A stretch of 64,000 bases of DNA from Melioribacteraceae bacterium (GCA_041674625.1 JBAYVI010000001.1:11421-75420); one strand, 5' to 3'; counted from the stretch's first letter, positions 914 through 45,042 are shown. Numbers and translations are program-made. The notes: generated by a model not told the origin, from the sequence alone.

Positions 914-943
914 TTAAAGTTTTCTCTTGACTAATCCGATAAG
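914..943 (+). promoter_or_regulatory. sigma-28/FliA-type promoter-like motif facing an ORF-free region
   Basis: TTAAAGTTTT-N11-TCCGATAAG, with the same spacing as the copies at 12443 and 13863. It points into the ORF-free stretch 944-1350. Confidence 0.4.
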
Positions 944-1350
944 GTGCTTAATGTAACGGATTAGTCTTTTACAGAAACGGTTTCTTATCCAGCGTTCTTT
1001 ACTCCGTGACCCGCCATGAGGTCTAAAAAGTAGCCTGAGCAGGTTTTATTCATGGCAATAAATTTTTATCCGCCCTTATGTGTACGGACCGGGGATGTTA
1101 ATTATTAATAAGCAAATAGCTGAAAGTAATTGACGAAAACAAGTAGAGTGAAATGGGACTCGTAAGAGTATTAGGAATATTTGTTCCTCCCCTGGGGTCT
1201 GACCAGCCTTAAATTGGTACTTGATAAAGGATACAAAGTTTTCTTAACCGTTTACATATTATTGTTTTCTGTTAAGTTTTATTTAGTAAGGGTGAAAAGT
1301 ATAGGAGCTTGATTCTATACTCCCCTGAAAACTACGGTCCCGAAAAAGGT

Positions 1351-1683
1351 TTAAAATAAAACACCCCTCCTAATTGCTTCCGCCCCTGCGAATCTATTCA
1401 ACCATTTAATCCCTACTGCAATATATCTTGGCTCACTGTAATAAACCATATTGCTAAACCCTCTTTTCATATACGCTGAGGGATGCGCTATTGCTTCGCC
1501 CGATTTTGTGTAATATCCCCTTAGCCTTTCCGCTCCGACAATATGAGGTTTCTTACTCCCGTTGACCGCAATCACGTTTAAATGATTAATATTATCGCCT
1601 GCAACCCGCACCATCCGTTTTATTTCTTTTCTTACTATCTCAGCATCATGTTTGTTTAAGTACTGCTCAATTGTAATATTCAT
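1351..1683 (-). CDS. hypothetical protein (110 aa)
   Basis: Track ORF with an AGGAAACAGGAAA SD-like region upstream. No motif recognised. Confidence 0.6.
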   Translation of the reverse strand: MNITIEQYLNKHDAEIVRKEIKRMVRVAGDNINHLNVIAVNGSKKPHIVGAERLRGYYTKSGEAIAHPSAYMKRGFSNMVYYSEPRYIAVGIKWLNRFAGAEAIRRGVLF

Positions 1684-1841
1684 TTTTCCTGTTTCCTTTA
1701 TTTATAAGGGTTTAAAAGGTATATCAATTTTAAACTATCATAAAGGCCCAGTACAGCCGTTTTCAATGCTTACCATCCTACCCTATTACCTAGTACCTAA
1801 TCGTGGCGTGGCGGTCATCCTATACCACTAAATTTCGCATC

Positions 1842-3209: not shown

Positions 3210-3418
3210 TTTGTAGCCTCTTTGTCTAAATGATGTTTGACTAATTTCCAGATATAACCATGCTTGCCTTCTGGGGTACATGTTTTCCCCGTACAACAGT
3301 GAGAACAAACAAGCATTGAACAACCTTTGCAAGCATGGTTTGCGGGATGATATGGAGTGTCATCCCTTACCAGCTCAAAACAATTCCCATCTATATCTAT
3401 GTATGCTGTATCACTCAT
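3206..3418 (-). CDS. Cys-rich small protein (70 aa)
   Basis: Track ORF with a cysteine cluster CKGCSMLVCSHCCTGKTC. Translationally coupled to the AAA+ gene. Confidence 0.5.
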   Translation of the reverse strand: MSDTAYIDIDGNCFELVRDDTPYHPANHACKGCSMLVCSHCCTGKTCTPEGKHGYIWKLVKHHLDKEATK

Positions 3419-3498
3419 TTTGTTCCCCTTTCTTTGTTTTAATTATAAACTCCACAAAGGGGATGTTTCTCAATTCATCCCCTCAAGCAATCTACAAT

Positions 3499-4473: not shown

Positions 4474-4515
4474 GATCTTTCCCCTTTAAAATTGATTAGT
4501 TAAATAATAAATAAA

Positions 4516-6762: not shown

Positions 6763-6791
6763 TTAAAGTTATCTGAAATTATGCCGATAAG
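6763..6791 (+). promoter_or_regulatory. sigma-28/FliA-type promoter-like motif
   Basis: TTAAAGTTA-N11-GCCGATAAG, 30 nt upstream of ATG 6821. Confidence 0.5.
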
Positions 6792-6820: not shown

Positions 6821-6997
6821 ATGAACAAAGAAGAATTTGATACAAAGAGAAAAGAACTTGGTTGGTCAAAGAGAGAATTAGCAAATCGTCTTGGGATTAC
6901 GGAGAGAACGATTCATGGGTACATGGCTGGAAACAAGATTCCCCAAACCGTTGAATATCTTTTCAATATGTTATATTTAAAACATGGAGGTCAATAA
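6821..6997 (+). CDS. XRE-family helix-turn-helix regulator (58 aa)
   Basis: Hand-translated MNKEEFDTKRKELGWSKRELANRLGITERTIHGYMAGNKIPQTVEYLFNMLYLKHGGQ. GGAGG SD present. Its stop overlaps the next ATG (TAATG). Confidence 0.7.
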   Translation: MNKEEFDTKRKELGWSKRELANRLGITERTIHGYMAGNKIPQTVEYLFNMLYLKHGGQ

Positions 6998-7815
6998 TGG
7001 AACAAATACCAGAGGCTTATTTAATATCAGCGGGTATATCTAAACTAACCGGAGAATCAAAATATCACGGACAAAAGAAACACCCACTATATGGAAGATG
7101 GATGAGAATGAAGAGAAGATGTTACGATACAAACAATAAAAGCTATAAGAGTTACGGAGCGAAGGGCGTCTATGTTTGTAATGAATGGTTACATGATTTT
7201 AAACCATTTTACGATTGGTGCATGGATAATGGGTATTCTCAAGAATTAGATATTGATAGAATTAATCCATGTGGCCCGTACTCACCATGTAATTGTCGGT
7301 TCATAACTAAATTTGAAAATTCTCAGAATAAAAGAAAGAAAACTGATTATAGAGGAGTTTCGTTTAATAAAACTAAAAATATATATTCTGGAACATTAAC
7401 ATTAAACCGAAGCGTTATTTTTAGAAGAAACTTTAAAGACGAATTAAGAGCGGCGATTATGAGAGATAAATTTATTGCACAGAATAATCTCCCGCACGAA
7501 ATGAATTTTCCAGAAAGAAGAGATGAATTTGTAGTAGGACCAAAAGTTAAAGCGTTTAGTACTAGAAAATCATCTGGGTTTACAATTCATGGATTATCAA
7601 AGTCCCCTATACACAAAAGATGGGATCTGATTAAAAAGAGACGCAACGAAACTAAAGGACGAATAACTATCTGTGAAGAATGGGATAAAAATTTTATGTC
7701 ATTTTATAATTGGTCAATAGAAAATGGGTTCGACGAAAAATTAGCACTATTTAGAAAAGATATAAGTTTAGGATATTCACCGGATAATTGTGAATATAAA
7801 GAAATGGTATATTAA
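6997..7815 (+). CDS. AP2-domain, homing-endonuclease-like DNA-binding protein
   Basis: YRGVSFNKTKNIYSGTL is AP2-like. The module HPLYGRWMRMKRRC...CNEW...DIDRINP..Y.P.NCRF is duplicated internally and is paralogous to 28665..29366. The HNH-like His positions are not evident. Confidence 0.6.
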   Translation: MEQIPEAYLISAGISKLTGESKYHGQKKHPLYGRWMRMKRRCYDTNNKSYKSYGAKGVYVCNEWLHDFKPFYDWCMDNGYSQELDIDRINPCGPYSPCNCRFITKFENSQNKRKKTDYRGVSFNKTKNIYSGTLTLNRSVIFRRNFKDELRAAIMRDKFIAQNNLPHEMNFPERRDEFVVGPKVKAFSTRKSSGFTIHGLSKSPIHKRWDLIKKRRNETKGRITICEEWDKNFMSFYNWSIENGFDEKLALFRKDISLGYSPDNCEYKEMVY

Positions 7816-11719: not shown

Positions 11720-12127
11720 TCAATGCTCCTCATATTTAATTTTAGCGTTTAGAAAATACTCTTCGGCACTTCTTATATCTTCCTTTAATTTATTACTTGA
11801 TTTTCTTAATTTATATACATCATGTGCCGCTTCAGTGTATAATTCAATAATATCTTTATTTATGTAAATTTTTCTATTTTTCTGTTTCTTATTTTTTATA
11901 ATAATATAATGCCATTCCTCTAAAATAGCGAGTAGTCTTGAAACCGTCCTCTCATCCACAAAGAGTAGTTTAGAAAAATATTGGTTCCCGGCAAAACATC
12001 CATCTTTATTGCTGCTAAAATAATATATAATACTATACAACTTCTTAGCCATTTCTTGTATATTAATATTATAAACTATCCATTCGTGATAAGTATAGTG
12101 TGGTATTTTTGATTTCTGTTCTTTCAT
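11720..12127 (-). CDS. putative winged-helix/HTH DNA-binding protein
   Basis: FAGNQYFSKLLFVDERTVSRLLAILEEWHYI is HTH-like. The start is set at ATG 12127 with an AGAGGA SD; the track uses TTG 12151. Confidence 0.5.
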   Translation of the reverse strand: MKEQKSKIPHYTYHEWIVYNINIQEMAKKLYSIIYYFSSNKDGCFAGNQYFSKLLFVDERTVSRLLAILEEWHYIIIKNKKQKNRKIYINKDIIELYTEAAHDVYKLRKSSNKLKEDIRSAEEYFLNAKIKYEEH

Positions 12128-12211
12128 TTTATCCTCTTTAGTTAAGAGCAAATTATAATCACGATGTTTTGAAATGTCAAGGCTAAATAGTAGACATTTG
12201 TGTCATTTGAG

Positions 12212-12398: not shown

Positions 12399-12442
12399 CC
12401 AATTCTATTTATTTTTGTTCCAATTGTTTATTGCGTAATTTA

Positions 12443-12472
12443 TTAAAGTTTTATATTAATTATGCCGATAAG
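12443..12472 (+). promoter_or_regulatory. sigma-28/FliA-type promoter-like motif
   Basis: TTAAAGTTTT-N11-TGCCGATAAG. It is identical over 32 nt to the 13861-13892 copy. TATAAT follows 3 nt downstream. Confidence 0.55.
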
Positions 12473-12600
12473 GACTATAATTGACACATTAAATTGATTA
12501 AGAGTTAATTAATGGCATATAACACTCTAATTACTTTGATATACTTGACAAATATACGTATCATGATTATTATATAGCAAATAACACTAAAGAGGAATTT

Positions 12601-12846
12601 ATGGGTCAAGAAGACATTAAAATTGATGAAATACCATTTGGCGAATATTGTTATGAAATTCAAGATATTGATTTAAAAACAATGATAGCAAAAATTAGAA
12701 TATGCCCATTTTGGAGTAAAGACGAAACGAAGACAGAGCAAGAAAATGGATATTGTTCATATTTAGATCAAGGAGATTGGGATGGATTCGGCCTTTTATG
12801 GGATCAAGTGAAAGAATGTAGTATTAATTTATCTGAAGATATTTGA
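12601..12846 (+). CDS. hypothetical protein (81 aa)
   Basis: Track ORF with an AGAGGA SD. Confidence 0.6.
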   Translation: MGQEDIKIDEIPFGEYCYEIQDIDLKTMIAKIRICPFWSKDETKTEQENGYCSYLDQGDWDGFGLLWDQVKECSINLSEDI

Positions 12847-13292: not shown

Positions 13293-13314
13293 TATATTTT
13301 AGTTGGTATTCATT

Positions 13315-13665
13315 ATGAAAGAATTATTATCTTCAATCACGAAGAAAGATTTCAAAATTGACTTTTTCTCCGGTACAGGGGCAGGAGGTCAACACAGAAA
13401 TAAACACCAGAATTGTGTAAGATTAACTCACATTGATTCTGGTGTAATGTCTACGGGACAATCAAGTAGAGATAGGATTGCTAACCAAAGAGAAGTATTT
13501 GAATCATTAGTAAATAATCCTAAATTCAAATTATGGCACAATCAAAAATGTATAGAATTAATGACGGGCAAAACAATCGAACAAAAAGTTGATGAATCTA
13601 TGGTAGAAGAAAATCTTAAATTTGAATGTAGAGACGCCGAAAGCGGAATATGGATAAATTTTTAA
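13315..13665 (+). CDS. GGQ-motif RF-1-domain protein (ArfB/peptidyl-tRNA-hydrolase-like)
   Basis: SGTGAGGQHRNKHQNCVRLTHIDSGV is the class I release-factor GGQ domain signature. There is no codon-recognition domain (116 aa). ATG 13315 is preferred over the track's TTG 13303. Confidence 0.75.
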   Translation: MKELLSSITKKDFKIDFFSGTGAGGQHRNKHQNCVRLTHIDSGVMSTGQSSRDRIANQREVFESLVNNPKFKLWHNQKCIELMTGKTIEQKVDESMVEENLKFECRDAESGIWINF

Positions 13666-13849: not shown

Positions 13850-13862
13850 ATATTAAAAAGTA

Positions 13863-13892
13863 TTAAAGTTTTATATTAATTATGCCGATAAG
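13863..13892 (+). promoter_or_regulatory. sigma-28/FliA-type promoter-like motif upstream of the packaging/structural block
   Basis: TTAAAGTTTT-N11-TGCCGATAAG, 35 nt upstream of ATG 13927. Confidence 0.55.
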
Positions 13893-13926
13893 TACAATTA
13901 GTAAATAGGAGGTTTTAAAAAATGTA

Positions 13927-14133
13927 ATGAAAAATTCATTCGAAGATGATTCAAAATTTAAAGACATTCTAGAAAGACTAGAAACTGAAGTCAATTCATT
14001 TCAAGAAGAGATTATAAAACTAGACGAATTAGTTGATTATTTTCCAGAATTAGCCGTAGAAGCTACAGTAAAAAAAGACCAGCTTGAAGAAATAATTGAA
14101 AAAATTCAAGAGATAATTGAAGATTATTCATGA
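13927..14133 (+). CDS. hypothetical acidic coiled-coil protein (68 aa)
   Basis: Track ORF with an AGGAGG SD. Overlaps the TerS start. Confidence 0.55.
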   Translation: MKNSFEDDSKFKDILERLETEVNSFQEEIIKLDELVDYFPELAVEATVKKDQLEEIIEKIQEIIEDYS

Positions 14134-14849
14134 AAACCAAAAAAGTAAAAGTTATCACGACTGATTTAAGCACGGACTTAGATACCGAACAACCACAAAA
14201 TCCAGCAACATATTCTGACTATATTCAAGAAACAGAAGATATGATAAATAGCACTGATTATAGTGCTGACGAATTTAACCAAGCAATAAAAATTATTCAA
14301 TCAATAACCGATGCAGATGAATTGCCTTGGAAGGTTCAAAGATTCTGCTCTGAATATGTTGTCCACTACGATGGACAGAAATCAGCTATAAAGGCTGGAT
14401 GGCCAGAATGGAATGCTAATACATTTGCAAAAAGGTTATTATCTCATCCAAGAGTCCGAGCAGAAATTGAACGCCTTCAAAAAAATGTAGCGACTAAACT
14501 TCAGATTACTCAAGAACGAGTCCTAGAAGAAATTGCACATATGGCCTACGGGAACGTTGCAAATTTTTATGATGAAGAAGGTGTATTAATTCCTGTTCAT
14601 AAATTAGAGAAACATATTAGTGCCAGTATTCAGGATATGGTCTATGATAGAGGCGGAAGATTACTAGGTTATAAACTAGCGGCGAAGAGTGTTGCCCTTG
14701 ATGCCCTTTCTAAGACACTTGGTATATTCGATAAAGGTTCAGATAGAACTCTCCCAGTTGATTTAAAACAATTCCTCTCCATGTTGCCACAAGAATTGCA
14801 AGAAACCATCCGCGTGGGATTAGCCAAACGCATTTCAAATAAGAAATAA
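14130..14849 (+). CDS. terS: terminase small subunit
   Basis: QRFCSEYVVHYDGQKSAIKAGWPEWNANTFAKRLLSHPRVRAEIERL is a Terminase_2-like pattern. Position is immediately upstream of TerL. Confidence 0.75.
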   Translation: MKTKKVKVITTDLSTDLDTEQPQNPATYSDYIQETEDMINSTDYSADEFNQAIKIIQSITDADELPWKVQRFCSEYVVHYDGQKSAIKAGWPEWNANTFAKRLLSHPRVRAEIERLQKNVATKLQITQERVLEEIAHMAYGNVANFYDEEGVLIPVHKLEKHISASIQDMVYDRGGRLLGYKLAAKSVALDALSKTLGIFDKGSDRTLPVDLKQFLSMLPQELQETIRVGLAKRISNKK

Positions 14850-18625: not shown

Positions 18626-19630
18626 ATGAAAAATACAAAGGATGGGTTACACATAAACTGTAAAGATTGTTGTTGTAAAATATCGAGAGATAAAAGAAAG
18701 GAATATAGGAATAATTTAATTATAAGAGATCTTAAAGAAAATAAAAAATGTAGGATATGTGGAATAATAAAAGATATTGCGGAATTTCATAAAAACAAAT
18801 CGTCGTTTGATGGTCGTGCATATATTTGTTCAGATTGCGCTTGTAACGAGAGTAAAAGATATAGAGGTATGTATAAAGAAATTAATGAGATAGGGAATAT
18901 CTGCCATGATGTGAAAAGATGTAGCCATTGTAAGGAAGAAAAAGAGATAGAAAATTTTAATTCAGATATTTCAAGTTTTGGAGGATTTGACAAATATTGT
19001 AAAGAATGTCGTTCTATCATGAATAAAGAATATTCTGAGAAAAATAAAGATAGGATTTCTGAATTTAGGAAAATAAATTATATAAAAAATAGAGATTTAA
19101 TTTTAGATAGACAGAGAAAATCTATGGAGGATATTGCGACATTTGCTAGATTTGGGCATAGATTGACTTCTGAAGAAGAGGCAATAGAAGGGGAAAATGG
19201 GGCTTTGTTGATTAAATGTACACATTGTAAAAAATATCATGTACAGAAAAACAAAGTAGTCCTGAATAGAATTGCTGCATTAAATACCCCAGGCGGTAGC
19301 GAATCGAGGATTTATTGTTCTGACCAATGTAAACAAGATTGCGACATTTATTGGGCAAAGCTAATCCCCAAATCGCTTAGGAATATTGCAAGCAAATCTC
19401 GCTGTAACCAGAATAGAGTAAGAGAAATTTTACTAGATATTCAATTTGACGAAATGGGATGTAACTGGTGCGACAAATGCGGTGATATATTTGGACCAGA
19501 AGATTTATTCTTCCACCACAATATCCCGATTGGTGATGACCCAACAGAATACGATAACGCAGCTCATTATATGCTTGTTTGTAAAGATCATCACGAACAT
19601 AAAGGTTGTCTTGGAAATAAATATGAATAA
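18626..19630 (+). CDS. HNH endonuclease with N-terminal zinc-ribbon repeats (5' end probably at ATG 18564 across an A6 run)
   Basis: HNH region FFHHNIPIGDDPTEYDNAAHYMLVCKDHHEHK. Repeats follow the pattern CxxC-x(n)-F-x(n)-CxxC. The first repeat (ICKECKTEKNSSEFYN) lies upstream of the track start in the same frame. Confidence 0.75.
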   Translation: MKNTKDGLHINCKDCCCKISRDKRKEYRNNLIIRDLKENKKCRICGIIKDIAEFHKNKSSFDGRAYICSDCACNESKRYRGMYKEINEIGNICHDVKRCSHCKEEKEIENFNSDISSFGGFDKYCKECRSIMNKEYSEKNKDRISEFRKINYIKNRDLILDRQRKSMEDIATFARFGHRLTSEEEAIEGENGALLIKCTHCKKYHVQKNKVVLNRIAALNTPGGSESRIYCSDQCKQDCDIYWAKLIPKSLRNIASKSRCNQNRVREILLDIQFDEMGCNWCDKCGDIFGPEDLFFHHNIPIGDDPTEYDNAAHYMLVCKDHHEHKGCLGNKYE

Positions 19631-24141: not shown

Positions 24142-24417
24142 ATGAATAAATATTATGGTCGTAGATGTATGGGACATTATGTAAAATGTGATGATATTCC
24201 TAGTTTATTCAAACCAACAACTGTTGGTCGTTCAATTAAAATAGTACATGGCATTCCTGATGATTCGCAATTGATTGATCTAGTAATTCAAGATGGATAT
24301 GATGGGAAAGAGTGCATGTTTGTGTTTGAAAGTGAAGAATTCGACGTATTTGAATATGGGGCAAAATCACTTCCTGGTATTTCGGTTAGATATAGTTATT
24401 ATACAATTAAAGAGTGA
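24142..24417 (+). CDS. hypothetical protein (91 aa)
   Basis: Track ORF between the protease fusion and the MCP. Confidence 0.5.
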   Translation: MNKYYGRRCMGHYVKCDDIPSLFKPTTVGRSIKIVHGIPDDSQLIDLVIQDGYDGKECMFVFESEEFDVFEYGAKSLPGISVRYSYYTIKE

Positions 24418-28664: not shown

Positions 28665-29366
28665 ATGGAAAATGTATTAGGTAATAGGTACGGAAGATGG
28701 ATTGTAATAAACAACAATCCGAGTATCAGGACGAAGAAAAGAAGATCGGTCATTTGTCAATGTTCATGTAAAAAGAAAACCGTTAGGGAAGTAACTATTG
28801 TAGATTTGAAAATGGGTAAATCTAATTCTTGCGGATGTCTCCAAAGAGAAAGGGCAGCAGAATCGAATAGTACTCATGGGCTTTATAGGCACCCTTTGTA
28901 TAATATCTGGGGTTTAATGATGGGAAGATGCTATAACAAAAATGGAGTTCAATATAAGGATTGGGGCGGTAGAGGAATAATAGTTTGCGATGAGTGGAAA
29001 TATAATCCCGAATTATTTATAGAATGGTGTTTAGAAAACGGATGGGTTCAGGGATTAGAAATTGATAGAGAAAACAATGACGGGAATTATGAACCAAATA
29101 ATTGTAGATTTGTAACATCTCAGATAAATATAATAAACATGAGATTAATTCAATCAAACAACACATCTGGATATAGGGGCGTTTATTATAATAAACGCAA
29201 AAGAAGTTATTGTTGCCAAATTGGATATAACAAGAAATATATTTTAAGTGAATCTGGCTTCAAAACACCAGAACAGGCGGCGAAAGCACGGGATATATTT
29301 ATTATAAAAAACGATTTGCCTCATAAATTAAATTTCCCAGAACTAGCAATTAACGGGCCGCTATGA
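28665..29366 (+). CDS. AP2-domain, homing-endonuclease-like protein (paralog of 6997..7815)
   Basis: HPLYNIWGLMMGRC...CDEW...EIDRENNDGNYEPNNCRF plus the AP2-like YRGVYYNKRKRSYCCQI. Confidence 0.6.
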   Translation: MENVLGNRYGRWIVINNNPSIRTKKRRSVICQCSCKKKTVREVTIVDLKMGKSNSCGCLQRERAAESNSTHGLYRHPLYNIWGLMMGRCYNKNGVQYKDWGGRGIIVCDEWKYNPELFIEWCLENGWVQGLEIDRENNDGNYEPNNCRFVTSQINIINMRLIQSNNTSGYRGVYYNKRKRSYCCQIGYNKKYILSESGFKTPEQAAKARDIFIIKNDLPHKLNFPELAINGPL

Positions 29367-29974
29367 AAAATATTAATATAGCAATCGTTTTGCCTGTAAG
29401 CTGGGAATATTTACCAATACAATTTTTCAAATCCTGGATAACTTTAAAGAAACCAGAGCACTCTGTCATTATCCCAACGAGAGGAAGAATTGATGACATG
29501 CGGAATGCAGCAATAAACTCTGTGCTTAAAGATGGTAGTTTTAGCCACATTTTATTTTTAGATACAGACCACTTTCATCATCCAGACACAATACCAAAAT
29601 TGCTTTCTCACAATAAACACATTGTATCTGGATTAAGTTTTAGAAGGTCAGAACCGTATGACCCTATAATGTTCGTTAAGGATTACAAAAAATTTAAAAA
29701 CATTACAGAGTGGAAAGATGGTGAGTTATTAGAGGTAGATGTAATAGGAGCGGCCTCATTACTCGTAGATGTAGAAGTTTTTAATAGAATGAAAGCTCCA
29801 TATTTTGAAATGAACTACCCATATATGGATGGTGTTATTTCAGAAGATTTTGCGTTTTGTTTAAAAGCACAAGAACTTGGGTATGAAGTCTATTGTGATA
29901 CAAGTTGCACGAATGATCATATTGGCACTTTGAATATCAATAAAAAAGTTTGGGAGAAATTTTGTGGAAAATAA
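29363..29974 (+). CDS. GT-A fold glycosyltransferase (paralog of 36657 and 45032)
   Basis: DxD-type LFLDTDH, SEDFAFCLKAQELGYEVYCDTS and HIG. It aligns by eye along its full length with the two other paralogs. Confidence 0.7.
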   Translation: MKNINIAIVLPVSWEYLPIQFFKSWITLKKPEHSVIIPTRGRIDDMRNAAINSVLKDGSFSHILFLDTDHFHHPDTIPKLLSHNKHIVSGLSFRRSEPYDPIMFVKDYKKFKNITEWKDGELLEVDVIGAASLLVDVEVFNRMKAPYFEMNYPYMDGVISEDFAFCLKAQELGYEVYCDTSCTNDHIGTLNINKKVWEKFCGK

Positions 29975-35741: not shown

Positions 35742-36206
35742 ATGGCAAGAGTTACCTGGAATAGTAAACAAGTTATAGATTCTATAAAAGCAACTCAATC
35801 ACAGTCGATGAATGACGCTTGTGAATTTTTAAGTGATAAAATAAAGGATTCCATGAAGCCTGGAACTGGTAGATGGTGGCCTTCTAAAAAGGGCGATGGC
35901 TCTTTACACCAAGCTTCGATCCCTAATACAGCACCAGCCCCAGATACGGAAGAATTGAAAAATTCAATTTCTTGGGCGGCATCAACTGGTAGTAGCGGTG
36001 GGGGAGAAGGTAGTGAAAAAGTAACCGCACCTTTTTACGGCGCGAATACCAATATCATTGCTGGGAAAATAGGAACAACTAACGGAAAAGGTATTCTCCA
36101 TGAGATGGCTTGGACGATTGACGGAGCTAAAAGACCGTTTATAAGACCAGCATTCACTGAAAGCGAAGATGAATTAATCAGAATACTTGGGAAAAATAAA
36201 ATATGA
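35742..36206 (+). CDS. HK97 gp10-like tail-proximal protein
   Basis: Size, position and the ELKNSISW motif. Confidence 0.55.
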   Translation: MARVTWNSKQVIDSIKATQSQSMNDACEFLSDKIKDSMKPGTGRWWPSKKGDGSLHQASIPNTAPAPDTEELKNSISWAASTGSSGGGEGSEKVTAPFYGANTNIIAGKIGTTNGKGILHEMAWTIDGAKRPFIRPAFTESEDELIRILGKNKI

Positions 36207-36625
36207 GTATAAGCGAATTAGCAACAGGGGTATATAATTATTCACAAGTAGCGAGTAATTTTAAAACGAGTATCAATGGTAGGGTTTATCAAGTTCGTGC
36301 TCCTCAAAATCCTACATATCCATTTGTTATATTCTTCTTCCCTGTCGATACCATTACGCATTTTATGAACGAACAAGCTGTAGCGGCAAATGCAGTATTA
36401 AATATTAGTTTACAGTTTAATATTTATTCTCAAAATCAGTCCACAAGTGAAATTAATACCATAGATGGATATTTAACGGATAGATTTGATTTCGCTAACT
36501 TAACTGTATCTGGATATTATTGCTTTGATTTGTATAGAACTCATAAAATCCCCCCTATGTGGGTAGAAGACATCCAAGGTTATATTTCTTCCGTAATTTA
36601 TCAAGTGCAATTACAAAAAAATTAA
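36203..36625 (+). CDS. tail completion/terminator protein (DUF3168-like)
   Basis: VYQVRAPQNPTYPFVIF pattern and position. Confidence 0.55.
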   Translation: MSISELATGVYNYSQVASNFKTSINGRVYQVRAPQNPTYPFVIFFFPVDTITHFMNEQAVAANAVLNISLQFNIYSQNQSTSEINTIDGYLTDRFDFANLTVSGYYCFDLYRTHKIPPMWVEDIQGYISSVIYQVQLQKN

Positions 36626-36650
36626 AGTTTCTGCAATTTTTACCGATAAG
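36622..36650 (+). promoter_or_regulatory. sigma-28/FliA-type promoter-like motif directly upstream of the glycan island
   Basis: TTAAAGTTT-N12-ACCGATAAG. The -10-like element ends only 6 nt before ATG 36657. Confidence 0.35.
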
Positions 36651-36656
36651 CAATTC

Positions 36657-37283
36657 ATGAAAAATATTAAACTTGCAATAGCAGTCCCATTAAGTCATAA
36701 CAGCGTTCCATTACAGTTCTTCGAGTCATATGTAGCGATGTTGAAGCCATGTAGACATATGTTCATTCATGCTAGTAGCTATCAAGGTGTCGATCATATG
36801 CGCAATCAGTTAATTGAAGGAGCAATAGTATACAATTGTTCACATATATTATTCCTTGATGTAGACCATCGGCATCATCCAGAAACAATTACAAAACTAT
36901 TATCTCATAAATTGCCCATTGTCTCAGGTCTTTCATATATGCGCAATGCTGATTATGAACCATGTATGTTTCGTGGGATGATAAATAAATATGAAACGAT
37001 TACAGAGTGGGAAGAAAATTCTTTGGTTGAAGTAGATAGTGTTGGCGCTGCCTGTTTATTAGTTGATATGAAAGTATTTAACGACATACAAAGGCCATAT
37101 TTCAAATTTATGGAAAATCCCGACCCAACTGCAAAATATGGAATAGGAGAAGACGTAGTATTCTGCAATAAGGCAAAACAAGCAGGATATAAAATTTATG
37201 TAGACACAAGCTGTACTAATAAACACATTGGACAAATTGAAGTAGATGGAGATATTTATAAAAAATGGAATGGTGCTAATTAA
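36657..37283 (+). CDS. GT-A fold glycosyltransferase (paralog 2)
   Basis: LFLDVDHRHHPETITKLLSH, GEDVVFCNKAKQAGYKIYVDTS and HIG. Confidence 0.7.
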   Translation: MKNIKLAIAVPLSHNSVPLQFFESYVAMLKPCRHMFIHASSYQGVDHMRNQLIEGAIVYNCSHILFLDVDHRHHPETITKLLSHKLPIVSGLSYMRNADYEPCMFRGMINKYETITEWEENSLVEVDSVGAACLLVDMKVFNDIQRPYFKFMENPDPTAKYGIGEDVVFCNKAKQAGYKIYVDTSCTNKHIGQIEVDGDIYKKWNGAN

Positions 37284-37855
37284 TGTTAAACTATAAAGAT
37301 GTATACAATAAAGTTTATTCTGAAAAAGATGATTATGGAGACATAAAGCATTCAAGGCCAGATTTAAAAGAAAAAGTTATTTTGGACTTTATCGATAACA
37401 AAGATGGGACGGTATTGGATATCGGTTCTGGTTCTGGTTATTATTTATCCTCATTGATTAATCATGGAATACACGCCTTCGGTATAGAAGTTAGTGATAT
37501 TTGCTGTGAAAAATATCTAACAAGCTTACCACATAAATGTACAGATATAATTAAATATTCTAAATTCAATACCACTCCTAAATTTGATTATGCAATATGC
37601 AACGATTTTATTGAACATATTTATATTGAAGATTTAGACAGCGTGTTAAAATCAATTGTTAAATTAAGTGGCGATTGTTTATTTGGAATTGCTAATCACA
37701 ATGAATTTTTGTGCGGTATGCAAATTCACCAGATAGTCCAAGGTGTTAACTTTTGGATTGAAAAACTAAATGAATACTATAAAAATGTAGAATTGGTTTC
37801 TATTTTAATGGATTCTAGGTTCTTTTTTGTAAAATGTTCTAACAAAAAAAGATGA
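37283..37855 (+). CDS. class I SAM-dependent methyltransferase
   Basis: Motif I VLDIGSGSGYY with a downstream acidic loop. Confidence 0.7.
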   Translation: MLNYKDVYNKVYSEKDDYGDIKHSRPDLKEKVILDFIDNKDGTVLDIGSGSGYYLSSLINHGIHAFGIEVSDICCEKYLTSLPHKCTDIIKYSKFNTTPKFDYAICNDFIEHIYIEDLDSVLKSIVKLSGDCLFGIANHNEFLCGMQIHQIVQGVNFWIEKLNEYYKNVELVSILMDSRFFFVKCSNKKR

Positions 37856-37942
37856 TATTTCAGAAACTAATGAAGGATTTTATGACGCTATCAAATCAAC
37901 TAATACTGATGAGACTAATAATTTATCGGGTGAGTTAATTAA

Positions 37943-38800
37943 ATGAAAATTTTGGTCTTAGGTGCTAGTGGGATGCTTGGCAGTTCTATGCTAAATGTAA
38001 TGAGCGAAAATAAAAAATTAGATGTATTCGGAACAGTAAGGGGAAAATCAGATAAGAAATTTTTTACCCAACAAATCCAAGATAAAGTTCTCCATAACGT
38101 AAATATAGAAAATGAAAATACATTAAATGGATTGTTCGTTTCTTTAAAGCCAGACGTAGTTATTAATTGTGTTGGGATAGTAAAGCAAATTGATGACGCG
38201 AATAGTCCGTTAAAATCTATAGCTATAAATTCTTTGTTCCCCCATAAATTGAAATCATTATGCGATTCTTTTGATTCTAGGTTAATACATATCAGTACAG
38301 ATTGTGTATTCTCTGGTAAATATGGGATGTATAAAGAAGAAGATGTCTCTGACTGTACAGATTTTTATGGCAAGACTAAATATTTAGGAGAGGTTATTTC
38401 AGATAGATCGTTAACGATAAGAACCTCTATAATTGGCCCAGAGTTAAAAACGAACCATGGATTACTTAACTGGTTTTTAAGTCAAGGAAAAGAATGCAAT
38501 GGGTATAGCAATGCGGTTTTTAGTGGTTTCCCAACTGTAGTATTGTCCCAGATATTAAGAGATATCATTATTCACGATGAGTCGATTAGTGGGTTATATA
38601 ACATTGCTTCTGAAAAAATTTCAAAATTTGATTTACTGAGATTAATAGCTGATATTTATAAAAAAGATATTAAAATTAATGACTATAAAGATTTTACAAT
38701 CGATAGGTCTTTAGATGGTTCTAAATTTAATTTAAAGTCTGGGTACATAACTCCTAATTGGGAAAGCATGATTAATACAATGAGAGGTATTAATGTTTAG
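37943..38800 (+). CDS. RmlD-like NAD(P)-dependent sugar 4-reductase
   Basis: MKILVLGASGMLGS Rossmann motif and a YGKTK catalytic-type motif. 285 aa. Confidence 0.75.
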   Translation: MKILVLGASGMLGSSMLNVMSENKKLDVFGTVRGKSDKKFFTQQIQDKVLHNVNIENENTLNGLFVSLKPDVVINCVGIVKQIDDANSPLKSIAINSLFPHKLKSLCDSFDSRLIHISTDCVFSGKYGMYKEEDVSDCTDFYGKTKYLGEVISDRSLTIRTSIIGPELKTNHGLLNWFLSQGKECNGYSNAVFSGFPTVVLSQILRDIIIHDESISGLYNIASEKISKFDLLRLIADIYKKDIKINDYKDFTIDRSLDGSKFNLKSGYITPNWESMINTMRGINV

Positions 38801-39803
38801 TAACAAAACGGTATTAATAACAGGTGGAACGGGATCATTTGGGAGCGTTGTCGCGAAACGGTTACTGACTAACAACGTAAAAGAAGTTCGGATATTTAGC
38901 CGCGACGAAAAGAAACAAGAAGATATGAGAATCTCGGTGAACGATGCGAGATTGAAATTCTATATTGGTGATGTCAGAGATTACGGTAGTGTTGATTCTG
39001 CGATGATAGGGGTCAATTATGTATTCAATGCCGCCGCACTTAAGCAAGTACCTTCATGCGAATTTTTCCCAATGGAGGCGATAAAAACCAATGTTATTGG
39101 TGCCGATAATGTGATGAGTTCTGCAATAAAGAATAATGTAGAGCGGGTTGTTATTTTAAGTACTGATAAATCTGTTTATCCAATTAATGCAATGGGCATG
39201 ACGAAAGCTATTTCTGAAAAGGTAATGGTCTCAAAGGCGATGAAACAACGTGCTGGAGAAACGGTATTATGTGCTACTAGATATGGTAATGTAATGGCTT
39301 CCCGTGGATCTGTAATTCCCTTGTTTGTATCTCAATTAAAAAATAATGAGGAATTAACGGTAACAGACCCAGATATGACAAGATTTCTTATGTCCTTAGA
39401 CGATTCAATAGATTTGGTATTTTATGCTTTGATAAATGGTGGACAAGGTGATATTTTTGTTCAAAAGTCTCCAGCATCGACCGTGGGTGTTTTGGCCCAA
39501 GCATTAAAAGAAATGTTTGCAAAAGATAATAATATAAAAATTATTGGAACTCGACACGGAGAAAAATTATTTGAATCACTTATTTCAAGGGAAGAGATGG
39601 TAAGAGCCGTTGATCATGGGGATTATTATTGTATTAATCCGGATAATAGGGATTTAAATTATAATAAGTATTTCGATTCAGGAAATACGAATATTGATAA
39701 GATACAAGATTACACTTCACATAATACTACTAGATTGAGCATTGAAGAAACTAAAGAATTGTTGTTTTCATTGGATTATATTAAGGAAGAGTTGAATGCT
39801 TAA
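38793..39803 (+). CDS. UDP-GlcNAc 4,6-dehydratase/5-epimerase (CapE/FnlA/WbvB family)
   Basis: LITGGTGSFGS, IFSRDEKKQ, AAALKQVPSCEFFP, INAMGMTK (MxxxK), YGNVMASRGSVIPLF and IIGTRHGEK. It closely resembles S. aureus CapE as I remember it. Confidence 0.85.
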   Translation: MFSNKTVLITGGTGSFGSVVAKRLLTNNVKEVRIFSRDEKKQEDMRISVNDARLKFYIGDVRDYGSVDSAMIGVNYVFNAAALKQVPSCEFFPMEAIKTNVIGADNVMSSAIKNNVERVVILSTDKSVYPINAMGMTKAISEKVMVSKAMKQRAGETVLCATRYGNVMASRGSVIPLFVSQLKNNEELTVTDPDMTRFLMSLDDSIDLVFYALINGGQGDIFVQKSPASTVGVLAQALKEMFAKDNNIKIIGTRHGEKLFESLISREEMVRAVDHGDYYCINPDNRDLNYNKYFDSGNTNIDKIQDYTSHNTTRLSIEETKELLFSLDYIKEELNA

Positions 39804-40902
39804 GGTGATGACAATTGTTGGGACTAGGCCCGAATTAATAAAAATGTCTAGGGTTATAGATAAATTAGATAAAAATACAAATCATATTTTAGTACATACT
39901 GGTCAGAATTATGACTATGAGTTGAATCAGATTTTTTTCGACGAACTTAAAATAAGAAAACCAGATTATTTTTTAGAAGTTGCTGGTGAAAATACAGCAC
40001 AAACGATAGCAAACATTATCGAAAGAACAGATAAGGTAATAGAGGCAGAAAGTCCAGATGCTTTTGTAATATACGGAGATACCAATTCGTGTCTTTCTGT
40101 AATTTCAGCCAAAAGGAGAAAAGTGCCTGTATTCCATATGGAAGCAGGCAATAGGTGTTTTGATCAAAGAGTTCCAGAAGAATTAAATAGAAAGATAATA
40201 GACCAGTTATCTGATATTAATATTGTTTTATCTGATAGAGCTAGAGAAAATCTTGTACTAGAAGGAATAAGACCAGAAACTATATTTAAGTCTGGTTCTC
40301 ATATGAAAGAAGTTTTAGATTACTACATGTCTGATGTGTATAGGTCAGACGTACTAAATAGATTAAAATTAAAAAGTTCAAGTTATTTTGTGTTTAGTTT
40401 TCATAGGGAAGAAAATATTGACGACATAGATAATTTAAAAACTATAATTAAATCGATAAAGGCAGTATCTGCAACATATAACCTCCCTGTTATAGTATCC
40501 ACTCACCCTAGAACAAAGAAAGCATTAGATGATTTAAATATTAGTACAGATGAAAAGATTATTTTTAGTAAGCCGTTTGGGTTATTTGATTACATAAAGT
40601 TGCAAATCAATGCAAAATGTGTTGTCTCAGATAGCGGTACAATAACAGAAGAGAGTTCTCTACTCGGTTTTCCTGCTGTTACTATTAGGAATACTCATGA
40701 AAGGCCAGAGGGAATGGATAATGGTGTTTTAATCATGTCTGGTGTAGATACTGGGTCAATAATGGATTCGGTAGATGTTGCTATAAAATGCGGCAAGCCA
40801 CATGCGATTGATGAATACAATAAACAAGATGTATCTACCCATATATTAAAATTGATATATAGTCATACTGGATACATTAATAGAACCGTATGGCATAAAT
40901 AA
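39796..40902 (+). CDS. non-hydrolysing UDP-HexNAc 2-epimerase (WecB/FnlC/CapG family)
   Basis: TIVGTRPELIKMS, YGDTNS, HMEAGNR and VSDSGTITEES. Confidence 0.85.
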   Translation: MLKVMTIVGTRPELIKMSRVIDKLDKNTNHILVHTGQNYDYELNQIFFDELKIRKPDYFLEVAGENTAQTIANIIERTDKVIEAESPDAFVIYGDTNSCLSVISAKRRKVPVFHMEAGNRCFDQRVPEELNRKIIDQLSDINIVLSDRARENLVLEGIRPETIFKSGSHMKEVLDYYMSDVYRSDVLNRLKLKSSSYFVFSFHREENIDDIDNLKTIIKSIKAVSATYNLPVIVSTHPRTKKALDDLNISTDEKIIFSKPFGLFDYIKLQINAKCVVSDSGTITEESSLLGFPAVTIRNTHERPEGMDNGVLIMSGVDTGSIMDSVDVAIKCGKPHAIDEYNKQDVSTHILKLIYSHTGYINRTVWHK

Positions 40903-40933
40903 TGATAACGGTTAATGTGTTATTAGTGAAGCA

Positions 40934-41758
40934 ATGAAAAGAATACCTAAGATAGTTCATATGTATTGGGACGGAACACCTATGTCTAAACTACAGACTT
41001 TTACTGTAACTTCTTTTTGTAGGTTAAATCCAGATTGGAAAGTAATAGTACATCTTGATAAATTAAGGTATCGTGGGAACAATAAATATATACCTTCCTA
41101 TGTACGAGAAGATTATTTCCATATAGTGAAGGATAATAAACAAGTTAATATAGATGAAGTAAATCTTTCTGATTATGGCGTCAGTGGAGATTTACATCCG
41201 ATATTAAGATCAGATATATTGAGGTATCATTGGCTATATAATGAGGGAGGTGTTTGGTCAGATTTTGATGTTATTTGGTTAAAACCTATTCATTATTTAA
41301 GCACTATAGCTGGAACTGATTCATTTGGGGTTACTTTATGCATGTACGATGGGAAAAAGAAACATCATAATGTAAGTGTATTGGTCAGTTCCAAAGGCCA
41401 CGAATTTTATAGGTATGCCATATATTTATGCAATGAAATAAAAAATAAAATAACAGAAAACCCGGACCATCAGGAGTTCGGGAATTCAATTTTTAATAAA
41501 GCATTCCCTAAGCCTGAAGACGCCTTGAGTAAATTCCCAGATATGATTAATTTAAAATATGAAACATTTTTCCCGTATTCTATTTTTAATATGGACGCGC
41601 TGTATTTAAGTACGGACTTAACGTATATAACAGACTCGGTTATTGGTGTACATTGGTTTAACGGCCACAAGTATAGTAAGGACTACGTAAATAACAATGG
41701 TTTCAGTAGAGATTGTAGTATGACAGAAATCATTAAAAATGAGGGTTATAATGACTAA
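40934..41758 (+). CDS. glycosyltransferase with DXD sugar-binding motif (Gly_transf_sug-like)
   Basis: IPKIVHMYW, RSDILRYHWLYNEGGVWSDFDV. Confidence 0.7.
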   Translation: MKRIPKIVHMYWDGTPMSKLQTFTVTSFCRLNPDWKVIVHLDKLRYRGNNKYIPSYVREDYFHIVKDNKQVNIDEVNLSDYGVSGDLHPILRSDILRYHWLYNEGGVWSDFDVIWLKPIHYLSTIAGTDSFGVTLCMYDGKKKHHNVSVLVSSKGHEFYRYAIYLCNEIKNKITENPDHQEFGNSIFNKAFPKPEDALSKFPDMINLKYETFFPYSIFNMDALYLSTDLTYITDSVIGVHWFNGHKYSKDYVNNNGFSRDCSMTEIIKNEGYND

Positions 41759-42584
41759 AAGAAATATTTTTTTATTTAAGGCAGAAGGAAAAGAAAATTT
41801 CGGAGAATACTTATGTAAGAGTGTTATACAAAAGATGGGGTTTGGACTTAATAATTATTCTAATGTTAACCAGATAACAGAACCAATTGATTATATAATG
41901 ACTGGGATAGGTGGATTTCTAAACAATGAAATCCATTCTTTATATTTAACTAAAGCCAAGAAGTGGTATGTGTGGGGTAGCGGAGTTCATTGCATTCCTT
42001 TACCTTGGCATAAATTATCGGAAGACATCATAAAGAACAAATGTATTATAACTGCTTTAAGAGGTCCGATGACCAGGGATTATTACGGGATCAAAGATGA
42101 TATTACACTAGGTGATGCTGGCTACTTAGCTTCTTATTTTTTTAAATTCCCAGTAAATGAGAAGAAGAAGAATGTACTCATTAATCATCATTATGATAAT
42201 GTTAAAAAACCGATGAAAGGAATAGATATTCATATATCGTCTTTGATGGACTCAGACATTAATGGTTCTTTTGACAATCAGTTTAAATACATATTGAATA
42301 GTATATGTAACGCAAATATAGTAATGACTAGCTCTATGCACGTAGCTATAGTTGCTTATTCTTATGGTATTCCCTTTGCAATGGTAGCCAAGAGAGAGAC
42401 TGATTTAGTTAAAGAGTGGAAGTGGCATGATACATTATTGAATATGGGCATAACAAAGAAAATAGTATTGTGTGAGAGTATAGAAGATGGTTGGGCTTGG
42501 TGGAACAGTGTTCAGAAAGATATACGTCCAATTACTAAAGAATATCAGGGAACAATAATAAAGGCATTTCCCGTAATACTATGA
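41739..42584 (+). CDS. polysaccharide pyruvyl transferase family protein
   Basis: The C-terminal VMTSSMHVAIVAYSYGIPFAMV is typical of PS_pyruv_trans. Confidence 0.65.
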   Translation: MRVIMTKRNIFLFKAEGKENFGEYLCKSVIQKMGFGLNNYSNVNQITEPIDYIMTGIGGFLNNEIHSLYLTKAKKWYVWGSGVHCIPLPWHKLSEDIIKNKCIITALRGPMTRDYYGIKDDITLGDAGYLASYFFKFPVNEKKKNVLINHHYDNVKKPMKGIDIHISSLMDSDINGSFDNQFKYILNSICNANIVMTSSMHVAIVAYSYGIPFAMVAKRETDLVKEWKWHDTLLNMGITKKIVLCESIEDGWAWWNSVQKDIRPITKEYQGTIIKAFPVIL

Positions 42585-43402
42585 AGTGTTATTTAGCATA
42601 TTCAGCAAATCCAGATGTAAGACATAAAGCGTCAACTGGGGGATTTTGCAAAGAATTTTTACGTTTTTGCATAGAGGGGAAAATAATAGATAAGTCAATA
42701 CTAACAATTCTTGGAGAAGGAGAAGAAGCTTTAATCCCAAGAACTATAATTACTGATGATATAGAGAAGATAATGTCTACGAAGAGTAATTCTATATATG
42801 ATAAAACTAATCCATTATCCATTTTATCTAGTTTGAATAAAAACGAAAGTTATATTTTTGTAGGTTTGCCATGTCATATTTACTCAGTTAAAAAATATTG
42901 CAGCAAACACAATATCCGAATTATAACAATATCTTTATTCTGCAATCATACATCAGACAATAAATATTATAAAAGTGTTTTAGATAAAGCAAACCTGAGT
43001 GAAATAGATGTAAAACATTTCGAATATAGAGGATCTGGATGGCCTGGGTTTGAAAAAATAATTACCAATGAAGACCAGGAAATTAAGATTGACCATATAG
43101 AGGGATGGGATAATTATGTAAAAAAATATATGCAAATGCTACCAAAATGCAAGGTGTGCACCAGAATGATTTCGGAAGAAGCAGACATATGTGTTGGCGA
43201 TGCATGGATGCAAAAAGTATTAAATAACGATAGCAATGGAACTAATATGGTTGTGGCGATGACCACAACAGCGGATAAACTTGTAATGGATTGTTGTAAA
43301 AGTGGATATATTCATATTGAACATTTAGATATATCTGAATTTGAGGCCCAGAATAATAGGTCTGTTAAAATTAAGAAAGATAGAAGAGAGGCTTATGAAT
43401 AG
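42581..43402 (+). CDS. F420-hydrogenase beta-subunit C-terminal-like (FrhB/FdhB-C) protein
   Basis: VGLPCHIYSVKK, RGSGWPG, CxxC and GDAW. This family is commonly paired with pyruvyl transferases in polysaccharide loci. Confidence 0.6.
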   Translation: MKCYLAYSANPDVRHKASTGGFCKEFLRFCIEGKIIDKSILTILGEGEEALIPRTIITDDIEKIMSTKSNSIYDKTNPLSILSSLNKNESYIFVGLPCHIYSVKKYCSKHNIRIITISLFCNHTSDNKYYKSVLDKANLSEIDVKHFEYRGSGWPGFEKIITNEDQEIKIDHIEGWDNYVKKYMQMLPKCKVCTRMISEEADICVGDAWMQKVLNNDSNGTNMVVAMTTTADKLVMDCCKSGYIHIEHLDISEFEAQNNRSVKIKKDRREAYE

Positions 43403-44255
43403 CTGGAGTATGTCGATCCCTAAGGTTCTCAATTTGTATTGGGGTAAAAATAAACCATTATCTTTTATGAAGTACCTGACCGCTTTATCTTTTGTGAAAC
43501 ATAACCCAGATTGGGAGATAATAGTTTATTACCCATCTGTGGTAGAAAGTAAAATATTGTGGGATAGCAATGAACAAAAAGAATATAATTATGATGACAT
43601 TGATTATTTTGATAGATTAAGTAATATTAAAAATTTATCTTTAAGGAAAACCGAGTTTGGTGAATTTTCAAACTTATCAGAAGTACATAAATCAGATCTC
43701 ATTAGGCTTAAAATATTATCAACATCAGGTGGGGTTTGGTCAGATTTTGATATTTTTTATACAAAATCGATTAATGAATTCGATCTAAATAATACTGACA
43801 ATAAATTAAAAGATACATTTGTTTGCTTCACTAGTTATCATAGTATCGGGTTTTTAATGAGTTCTGGGAATAATAAATTCTTTGAAGAACTATATAAAAT
43901 GGCAATATATAATATAAAAAATGCTGAAAATCTACAATACCAAAATTTAGGTAGGGATTTATATAATTATTTTTTTAAATATAATGATTATAAAGCGATT
44001 AATTATTCAATTAAATTCAATTGTAACATTGCAAACATTACATTTGAAACGGTATATCCACTACAATGGAACCAGATAGATTTAATATTTGGCGATAACA
44101 AACAGCGATTACCAGAAAATACAGTTGGCGTACATTGGTTTGCTGGATCTCCAATAACATCTAGTGTAGAGAATAAAATTACAGAAGAAAATATCCACCT
44201 TAATAAAGATAAATTCCTTCTAAAACTAATGTGTGAATTACTTGAAGAAATATAG
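43395..44255 (+). CDS. glycosyltransferase with DXD sugar-binding motif (second copy)
   Basis: IPKVLNLYW, KSDLIRLKILSTSGGVWSDFDI. ATG 43395 is preferred over the track's TTG 43341. Confidence 0.7.
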   Translation: MNSWSMSIPKVLNLYWGKNKPLSFMKYLTALSFVKHNPDWEIIVYYPSVVESKILWDSNEQKEYNYDDIDYFDRLSNIKNLSLRKTEFGEFSNLSEVHKSDLIRLKILSTSGGVWSDFDIFYTKSINEFDLNNTDNKLKDTFVCFTSYHSIGFLMSSGNNKFFEELYKMAIYNIKNAENLQYQNLGRDLYNYFFKYNDYKAINYSIKFNCNIANITFETVYPLQWNQIDLIFGDNKQRLPENTVGVHWFAGSPITSSVENKITEENIHLNKDKFLLKLMCELLEEI

Positions 44256-45042
44256 TATTGTGTTTCCTTATTATAAAAGATCTAGTCAACTCCATAATTC
44301 ACTTATTTCGTTCCAACATCACTATAAAGATAGAAATGATTATGAAGTAATTGTCGTTGAAGATATTAAAAACTATAATAATGCAGAAGAACACGAAAAA
44401 CTATTAAAAGTATTAAAGTTTTATACACAAAATGCCGATAAGGTAGTTAATATAAAACTGATAAAATCGAGCTTTGAGAATTGTTATAATCCAGCTCCTT
44501 TATTTAATTTAGGAGTGAAAAACGCTAGTGGCGAATATTTAATTATAACAAATCCAGAGATATTCCATAAAGATAATATATTGAGTGCATGTGATGATAT
44601 ATTGTCTAAATACGATGACCATTATATAGTATTTTCTTGCCTTAATGTTGATGAGTATCCTAAAAGTGTATCTGATTTTGATGAATTTACTTTTAAACCA
44701 AAAATGTGGTATCAACATTTAAAATATAGAAATGCTTTATTCCATTTCTGTTCCTGCTTGTCGAAGAGACAGTATGAAGAAATTGGGGGATTTGATGAAA
44801 TATATTCATTAGGTATTGCATACGATGATGACGATTTCAGAGAAACAATAAATAAAGCAGGGATTCAATTCATAGCAACTGATTCATTTTTAACATTGCA
44901 TCAAGATCATGGAAGTGTGTTTGATAAATTGCCTGATTATGAAAAGAGATTGAATAGAAATAAAGCGTTGTATTATTTGAAGAAGCAAAATAAGTCAAGT
45001 GAGTATATTAACCAATTTTTAGGAGAGAATTTTGGTGGATAA
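44233..45042 (+). CDS. family 2 glycosyltransferase
   Basis: SIVFPYYKR, VVEDIKNYN, and a later DDDD acidic motif (AYDDDDF). Confidence 0.65.
   Translation: MNYLKKYSIVFPYYKRSSQLHNSLISFQHHYKDRNDYEVIVVEDIKNYNNAEEHEKLLKVLKFYTQNADKVVNIKLIKSSFENCYNPAPLFNLGVKNASGEYLIITNPEIFHKDNILSACDDILSKYDDHYIVFSCLNVDEYPKSVSDFDEFTFKPKMWYQHLKYRNALFHFCSCLSKRQYEEIGGFDEIYSLGIAYDDDDFRETINKAGIQFIATDSFLTLHQDHGSVFDKLPDYEKRLNRNKALYYLKKQNKSSEYINQFLGENFGG
44413..44442 (+). promoter_or_regulatory. sigma-28/FliA-type motif embedded in coding sequence
   Basis: TTAAAGTTTT-N11-TGCCGATAAG read in frame as LKFYTQNADK. It shares the 23-nt ATTAAAAGTATTAAAGTTTTATA with the intergenic copy at 13863. Confidence 0.4.

Follow-up and report, generated by a model that had tools for sequence, protein, structure and literature searches.

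A 64,000-nucleotide (nt) stretch deposited under Melioribacteraceae bacterium (GCA_041674625.1, JBAYVI010000001.1:11421–75420), hereafter the window, is part of an uncultivated large tailed phage of the siphophage type, and it raises the question of what a short two-part element repeated along its plus strand does and which factor reads it. The initial annotation, made from the sequence alone, had reported the form TTAAAGTTT-N11/12-(G)CCGATAAG at seven plus-strand sites and had taken it for the promoter consensus of sigma-28 (FliA/SigD), which is the flagellar sigma factor. Both statements held: six of the sites are exact and one has a single mismatch, and both boxes are identical to the published Escherichia coli form and conserved in related phages. 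We regard the element as very probably a sigma-28-class promoter, with a −35 box TTAAAGTTT, a spacer of 11–12 nt, and a −10 box (G)CCGATAAG, which may be read by RNA polymerase carrying a FliA-family sigma factor of the host.

The initial annotation had proposed a scan for enrichment over shuffled sequence. We searched both strands of the window for the pattern TAAAGTTT-N(10–14)-CCGATAA, with 100 dinucleotide-preserving shuffles as the null, and found six exact two-box matches (at 915, 12444, 13864, 23651, 36623, and 44414, all on the plus strand), whereas the shuffles yielded none. The seventh copy, at 6763 and likewise on the plus strand, reads TTAAAGTTA, with one mismatch. On its own, CCGATAAG occurred nine times in the window against 1.27 expected, each time on the plus strand, and CTTATCGG did not occur there at all, in agreement with the earlier remark that the window holds no minus-strand copy. 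In unrelated viral loci that had been fetched for another purpose (1.46 Mb in all), a single exact two-box site was present. When the flanks of this phage were added (L007 on the left and L011 on the right, 14.7 kb; loci are given by such numbers throughout), the 78.7 kb read held 11 copies with at most one mismatch, 10 of which were co-oriented with the local genes. The copies at 12441–12472 and 13861–13892 had been described as identical over 32 nt, and the comparison was exact. A stretch said to be shared between 13852 and 44404 also exists, but not in the form given: the 23-nt string ATTAAAAGTATTAAAGTTTTATA occurs at 44404 alone, because the copy at 13852 has one extra A, and the true common stretch, at 13856 and 44406, is the 20-nt AAAAGTATTAAAGTTTTATA.

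A scan of IMG/VR for TTAAAGTTT-N11/12-CCGATAAG returned 68 stretches, among which 12 loci from ten contigs were treated as the lineage of the window phage. Nine of the 12 share window proteins by BLASTP, with identities of 80% for the major capsid protein, 63–67% for the portal protein, and 55–56% for the large terminase subunit. Lineage copies stand in the same places as those of the window: two precede the small terminase gene, one an Anp1-like glycosyltransferase gene, and another the gene homologous to that at 45032, while one lies inside the protease-AAA gene. In alignments at syntenic positions, the two boxes are invariant islands within flanks and spacers that diverge (the relatives concerned have protein identities of approximately 60–80%). 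The consensus of 28 distinct lineage sites is aaAaattaTTAAAGTTT-N11/12-(t)(G)CCGATAAGgta, with an N11 spacer in 13 sites and an N12 spacer in 15, the spacer sequence itself being variable. The base before CCGATAA is G in 16 sites, T in six, and A in six; the −35 box TAAAGTTT carries 1.5–2.0 bits per position and is exact in six of the seven window copies. In relatives, the motif also stands before a small open reading frame (ORF) immediately 5′ of the DnaB gene and before a TnpB gene (385 amino acids [aa], Cas12f1-like TNB domain); in IMGVR_UViG_3300032018_000004 (L089, 17291–18473), a TnpB/Cas12f-like insertion, oriented opposite to its neighbors, lies directly behind a perfect copy. Outside the lineage, approximately 20 stretches of unrelated contigs (25–47% G+C) contained two to five copies each within 3–15 kb, and one unrelated 161-kb contig contained eight copies in 12 kb over two adjoining stretches; the copies in unrelated phages precede helicase, polymerase, and other genes. 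Five contigs of sample 3300045988 (L018, L024, L038, L045, and L072; 14,997–16,409 bp) have one perfect copy each in the same context, and L024 has a phi29-type connector gene.

The published consensus of E. coli sigma-28 promoters is TAAAGTTT-n11-GCCGATAA (PMC2859248). The phage −10 box CCGATAA fits GCCGATAA and was invariant in all 28 lineage sites, and the same scan recovered the E. coli fliC and fliD promoters, which show this geometry too. The motif has neither the TTGACA nor the TATAAT hexamer of a sigma-70 promoter at the right place. It is promoter-like in form, having two boxes whose spacer is unconstrained in sequence and differs by a single base in length, as −35/−10 recognition by a sigma factor would lead one to expect, and it is from this form together with the statistics, conservation, and placement of the copies that we infer promoter activity. 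At the copy at 36622, the ATG of the first glycan-island gene (36657, a glycosyltransferase) begins at the eighth nt after CCGATAA, which leaves no room for another −10 box, so that CCGATAA itself would be the −10 element. The eighth nt is also where the start site of a sigma-28 promoter would fall, in support of the same assignment, and the glycosyltransferase mRNA is therefore predicted to be leaderless. L059 and L015 share this 8-nt geometry with the window phage; in L051, the same gene could begin either with an ATG at nt 10 after CCGATAA or with a TTG at nt 7. At other copies, a Shine-Dalgarno site lies within a few bases after the motif, and the leaders are short.

The closest likeness is to the class 3 flagellar promoters read by sigma-28/FliA in E. 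coli and Salmonella (fliC, fliD, tar, and aer), which have the same two boxes and start 7–9 nt after the −10 box, where the phage start is predicted to lie. The phage sites differ from these in their setting, a lytic-type genome in which they stand before structural, nucleotide-metabolism, and mobile-element genes, and in being nearly all perfect, whereas host promoters deviate from the consensus. The promoters of Bacillus SigD and Chlamydia sigma-28 (TAAA-N15-GCCGATAT; hctB) are of the same sigma family, and their boxes are placed alike. In comparison with them, the phage −10 box ends in AAG rather than TAT, the phage has the full proteobacterial-type −35 box TAAAGTTT, and the host clues for the phage point to a Gram-negative bacterium.

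Four of the window copies, all on the plus strand, stand upstream of gene starts, with 29, 128, 34, and 6 nt between CCGATAAG and the next start codon, within 1 nt of the distances first reported. The copy at 6763–6791, which has an N11 spacer, precedes an XRE gene (6821–6997, HTH_3 domain; HTH, helix-turn-helix) at 29 nt, followed by an HNH endonuclease gene (6997–7815; HNH PHROG families, E = 3e−54). The copy at 12443–12472 lies 128 nt before a block starting at 12601, with a sigma-70-like site (12545–12573) between the copy and its gene, and has syntenic counterparts at L003 5641 and L040 7832. In the first rightward unit, 13303–13665 encodes a 120-aa RF-1-domain protein of the ArfB-like peptidyl-tRNA hydrolase type. 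The copy at 13863–13892, 34 nt before a 68-aa gene at 13927 and ahead of the gene for the small terminase subunit (14130–14849), forms the head of the packaging and structural operon, and it has syntenic counterparts at L003 6499, L040 8560, L035 7200, and L014 145 (minus strand). At 13908–13930, a Shine-Dalgarno AGGAGG is followed 9 nt on by an ATG-TAA overlapping the ATG of the 68-aa gene (ATGTAATG), a start-stop mini-ORF directly ahead of the first late gene. The copy at 36622–36650, with an N11 spacer, overlaps the end of the ORF at 36203–36625.

The remaining three copies, also on the plus strand, are not upstream of a gene start. Two are intragenic: that at 23650–23679 lies in the protease-AAA ORF (21484–24132), approximately 490 nt ahead of the gene at 24142 (91 aa) and of the gene for the major capsid protein, and is kept at L003 15451 though the surrounding codons diverge; that at 44413–44442 lies in a 260-aa ORF (44261–45043), approximately 590 nt ahead of the Anp1-like glycosyltransferase gene at 45032, and is matched in synteny at L051 3495 (minus strand) and at L059 8717, where 72 nt separate the copy from the gene homologous to that at 45032. 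The copy at 914–943 is an orphan with the form TTAAAGTTT-N13-CCGATAAG and a T in place of the G ahead of CCGATAAG. It points into approximately 400 nt (944–1350) without a convincing ORF, convergent with a leftward gene at 1351–1683, and neither an Rfam family nor a structured RNA was detected there (folding z-score, −0.23, no better than shuffles); a transcript from it could act as antisense or by interference. The copies at 13863, 23650, 36622, and 44413 would serve the rightward late arm (13927–60095, plus strand; Pfam and tRNA calls), which contains the terminase, portal, protease, and capsid genes, three tRNAs, head-completion genes, the glycan island, and the tail and lysis genes.

The initial annotation had further held that the motif marks rightward units and that no leftward gene carries one, which does not extend to the rest of the phage. 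At L011 15122 (minus strand; window coordinate ~64812), 812 nt past the window end, a copy stands before the dUTPase gene that heads a leftward unit of dUTPase and ribonucleotide reductase (RNR) genes, and this promoter is kept with the same TAAAGATT variant at L082 13916 and L083 12532. Two more copies precede HTH_3 genes, at L011 19668 (minus strand) and at L007 19673 (plus in the locus, which is the minus strand of the window), the latter followed by an HNH gene; together with L082 10650 (plus strand), they form promoter-plus-XRE cassettes near-identical to that at 6763. Another, at L007 12556 (minus strand), precedes a 70-aa gene that by eye resembles a small HTH regulator. Because copies occur on the other strand just beyond the window, the "always rightward" rule is an accident of the window cut, and because one of them precedes the dUTPase gene, the leftward RNR gene at the right end of the window belongs to a motif-bearing unit. 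The window contains the distal end of this unit (60153–64000, minus strand), with the RNR gene and then two small genes; the RNR gene, at 60993–64000 and running off the window end, is interrupted by an intein with a LAGLIDADG endonuclease.

A second class of promoter was found mostly before leftward early genes. A perfect TTGACA-17-TATAAT (12152–12180, minus strand) stands at the head of the leftward arm, before a replication-initiator-like gene (11720–12151), and a TTGACA-17-TATTAT (660–688, minus strand) precedes leftward early small ORFs. Further sigma-70-type sites lie to the left of the window, with TTGACA-17-TACAAT and TTGACA-17-TAGAAT as examples from the small-ORF region. At a score of at least 11/12, 10 such sites were counted, against 4.2 in shuffles (maximum, 8). 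Shine-Dalgarno sequences are strong in this phage, and these, with the sigma-70-type sites, point to a host with canonical sigma-70 promoters. Taken together, the placements point to two promoter classes, an early one of sigma-70 type and a later one of sigma-28 type.

We next looked for a sigma gene of the phage itself. In the precomputed Pfam assignments for the called genes of the window and its 14.7-kb flanks (78.7 of 144.5 kb, including approximately 21 kb of early genes), there was no Sigma70 domain. We also read the relative IMGVR_UViG_3300032018_000004 from 11.5 to 79.6 kb (68 kb) and relatives from Logan whose genes run from DnaB/primase via DNA polymerase III (PolIII) alpha, ligase, NAMPT, RecA, flap endonuclease, SbcCD, ThyX, dUTPase, and RNR to the lysis genes, and neither precomputed Pfam assignments nor our own Pfam runs gave a sigma-70-family gene in these relatives; provided that these phages are collinear, the combined pieces span the leftward arm. 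A sigma hidden Markov model and six phmmer queries detected no sigma gene in 391 kb from the lineage or in 545 kb from further loci with the motif. The E. coli positive controls RpoD, RpoS, RpoH, and FliA were recovered at E < 1e−88, and the model is blind to extracytoplasmic function sigma factors (RpoE, 0.064). Weak phmmer matches to FliA and SigA proved on inspection to be AAA ATPases and the HTH of a terminase, and a 410-aa ORF (19718–20950; PucR-type HTH), considered as a hidden regulator or sigma factor, was called an exonuclease by PHROGs. FliA-like sigma genes do occur in phage records (Microcystis phage MaAM05 "fliA," SigF/G-like genes of Bacillus phages, some jumbo phages, and an IMG/VR gut phage group), so that the family can be phage-borne. 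These phages are unrelated to the window phage, and no sigma-28-type motif lies near the gene in the loci examined: the 22 IMG/VR loci encoding FliA-like proteins had no motif within 10 kb and did not overlap the motif-bearing contigs, and MT835480.1 has a FliA-like gene and no motif.

The reading that we prefer, at a probability of roughly one half, is that host RNA polymerase with the host's own FliA-family sigma factor reads the element; it is favored because no phage sigma gene was found in the sequence read. The leftward early genes would be read from strong sigma-70-type promoters (TTGACA-N17-TAnAAT), and the sigma-28-type promoters would drive the packaging, head, glycan, tail, and lysis arm and the dUTPase-RNR unit, as well as the XRE/HNH mobile cassettes (and TnpB in a relative), with transcription starting approximately 8 nt after CCGATAA. 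With host FliA, an early phage product able to release core polymerase or FliA would suffice for the switch from early to late genes, with sigma-70 inhibition and FlgM neutralization as candidate routes. Several points weigh against host FliA as the reader. Where well-studied phages have a distinct class of late promoters, the factor is mostly their own (T4, SPO1, and phiEco32), and a fliA gene in the host is a presumption. Approximately 66 kb of the 144.5-kb genome was covered only through relatives assumed to be collinear, and in the other motif-bearing phages the two to four sigma genes expected, against none seen, make a weak statistical argument. The sites also have an invariant T before TAAAGTTT, an invariant G after CCGATAA, and a frequent N12 spacer (15 of 28), unlike fliC and fliD, which have C after CGATAA and an N11 spacer; these differences could mean a sigma factor with a slightly different taste. 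One extra spacer base falls inside the usual tolerance of sigma factors, though it is not the canonical value.

Such a factor might be encoded by the phage itself, as a FliA-family sigma gene in the remaining 66 kb expressed from an early sigma-70-type promoter. This would follow the usual temporal-switch logic of phages (SPO1 gp28/gp34, T4 gp55, and phiEco32 gp36), the invariant flanking bases and N12 spacing could then reflect a private specificity, FliA-like genes are on record in phages, and nearly half of the genome lies outside the 78.7 kb read. We nevertheless consider it unlikely, given that no sigma-70-family gene was found in those 78.7 kb, in the 68 kb of IMGVR_UViG_3300032018_000004, or in the Logan relatives, which extend from PolIII by way of RecA and SbcCD to RNR, and that the motif is absent within 10 kb in the FliA-encoding IMG/VR loci and absent from MT835480.1. 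The phage-encoded systems (SPO1 gp28 and gp33/34, T4 gp55, and phiEco32 gp36) likewise have a separate middle or late class after sigma-70-type early promoters. To our knowledge, SPO1, T4, and phiEco32 each carry their own sigma gene and use promoters unlike any host alternative-sigma consensus, whereas the window phage has no sigma gene in the sequence read and a motif of the host sigma-28 type. It is more doubtful still that an unrecognizable phage protein helps, either a very divergent sigma factor or a MotA/AsiA-like appropriation pair, and that the likeness to sigma-28 is convergent. A large share of the early and middle ORFs in the lineage could belong to such a factor, being without a family assignment, and appropriation of the T4 type shows that phage factors can replace −35 recognition, but convergence on all 15 consensus positions at canonical spacing is very unlikely, CCGATAA lacks the T-12 and T-7 of a sigma-70 −10 box, and the copy at 36622 leaves no room for a −10 box downstream. 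We give very little credence to the element being a repeated binding or recognition site for XRE-type proteins, homing endonucleases, or packaging rather than a promoter, even though four copies adjoin mobile cassettes of the XRE/HNH type, one copy in a relative adjoins a TnpB gene, two are intragenic, and one is an orphan. Against such a site stand the two boxes with a sequence-free spacer varying by 1 nt, the co-orientation of 10 of 11 copies with genes, the short, regular distances to Shine-Dalgarno sites and start codons, and the recurrence in unrelated phages at two to eight copies per few kb before helicase, polymerase, and other genes.

The identity of the phage rests on its genes: small terminase, portal, a prohead protease-AAA fusion, an HK97-type capsid protein, head-completion proteins, a lambda-type tape measure and tail tip (DUF1833, NlpC/P60, and gpJ), a GH108 endolysin, a class II RNR with an intein, a C5 methylase, and three tRNAs. 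Identical proteins are encoded on two European Nucleotide Archive contigs, of 120,690 bp (from window position 12456) and 23,906 bp (the left part of the window). Both contigs break inside the repeated promoter at 12441–12472, one starting at 12456 and the other ending at ~12472, and this repeat seems to have split that assembly. The ORF at L011 19710–20312, beyond the window, has an identical protein on a 144,548-bp JGI contig, which is taken as the genome size (~145 kb). No close cultured relative was found by megablast of 12 kb, and tblastn with the portal and large terminase proteins gave at most 31% identity, so that no host was inferred from relatives. RecA queries returned nothing in an IMG/VR scan and only a 27% relative in a metagenome scan. 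The lambda-type tail tip and the GH108 endolysin point to a Gram-negative host. The best genome matches of the FnlA-like protein (64–70%) are mostly in Beta- and Gammaproteobacteria, with Leptospira and Legionella among them, which suggests that it gives the host phylum at best; the pyruvyl transferase had no genome match. On these clues, the host is probably a proteobacterium that uses Shine-Dalgarno sites and canonical sigma-70 promoters. A Flavobacterium host was considered for one unrelated contig bearing the motif from a PolA with 39% identity to that of phage immuto, but it was rejected, as the first 50 kb of immuto lack the motif.

Other features of the genome are worth recording. The glycan island (36657–46165) lies inside the structural arm and encodes an FnlA/B/C-like trio (Polysacc_synt_2, RmlD-type reductase, and UDP-GlcNAc 2-epimerase) along with a methyltransferase, two Gly_transf_sug glycosyltransferases, and a pyruvyl transferase whose partner is FrhB-like; there are three Anp1-like paralogues (29363–29974, 36657–37283, and 45032–45715). 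In the 882-aa ORF at 21484–24132, an AAA+ ATPase, lid domain included, is fused to a serine protease of the prohead type (S78). Many nuclease genes are scattered through the genome, structural arm included (6821–7815, 18626–19630, 19718–20950, 28665–29366, and 46265–47131); they comprise the XRE+HNH cassette, an endonuclease VII/HNH-like gene that has paralogues elsewhere, an exonuclease-like gene whose N-terminus has a PucR-type HTH, and a gene for a NUMOD3 protein. They look like homing elements, and the promoter type of the phage itself accompanies some of them. In relatives, the PolIII alpha gene, of the DnaE type, is split by an HNH gene, and NAMPT, a CCA-adding enzyme, RlaP, and an RNA ligase are also encoded, as is a small protein matching the chlamydial histone-like Hc1 family (L085 7846–8016, L086 7564–7740, and L087 19975–20148).

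Sigma-28 promoters and phage sigma switches are textbook material; our full-text literature searches found no description of a phage late program on flagellar-sigma-type promoters. We tentatively propose that whole lineages of large virulent phages, along with several uncultivated phages unrelated to them, lack a sigma factor and place middle genes, late genes, and even nuclease cassettes under the flagellar sigma factor of the host. If this is true, virions would be produced only where FliA is active, that is, in motile cells that have exported FlgM, unless the phage frees FliA itself. Should a phage sigma factor prove to be the reader, it would amount to a FliA carried by a phage and fully host-like in its specificity. 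In both cases, the motif provides a handle for annotating transcription units in this uncultivated phage group and for predicting leaderless genes, and it narrows host prediction to bacteria with a FliA-family sigma factor. Bacteria in biofilms and host-adapted bacteria commonly lose or repress fliA. If host FliA reads these promoters, phage development would be tied to the motility state of the host, and such loss or repression would be a route to phage tolerance.

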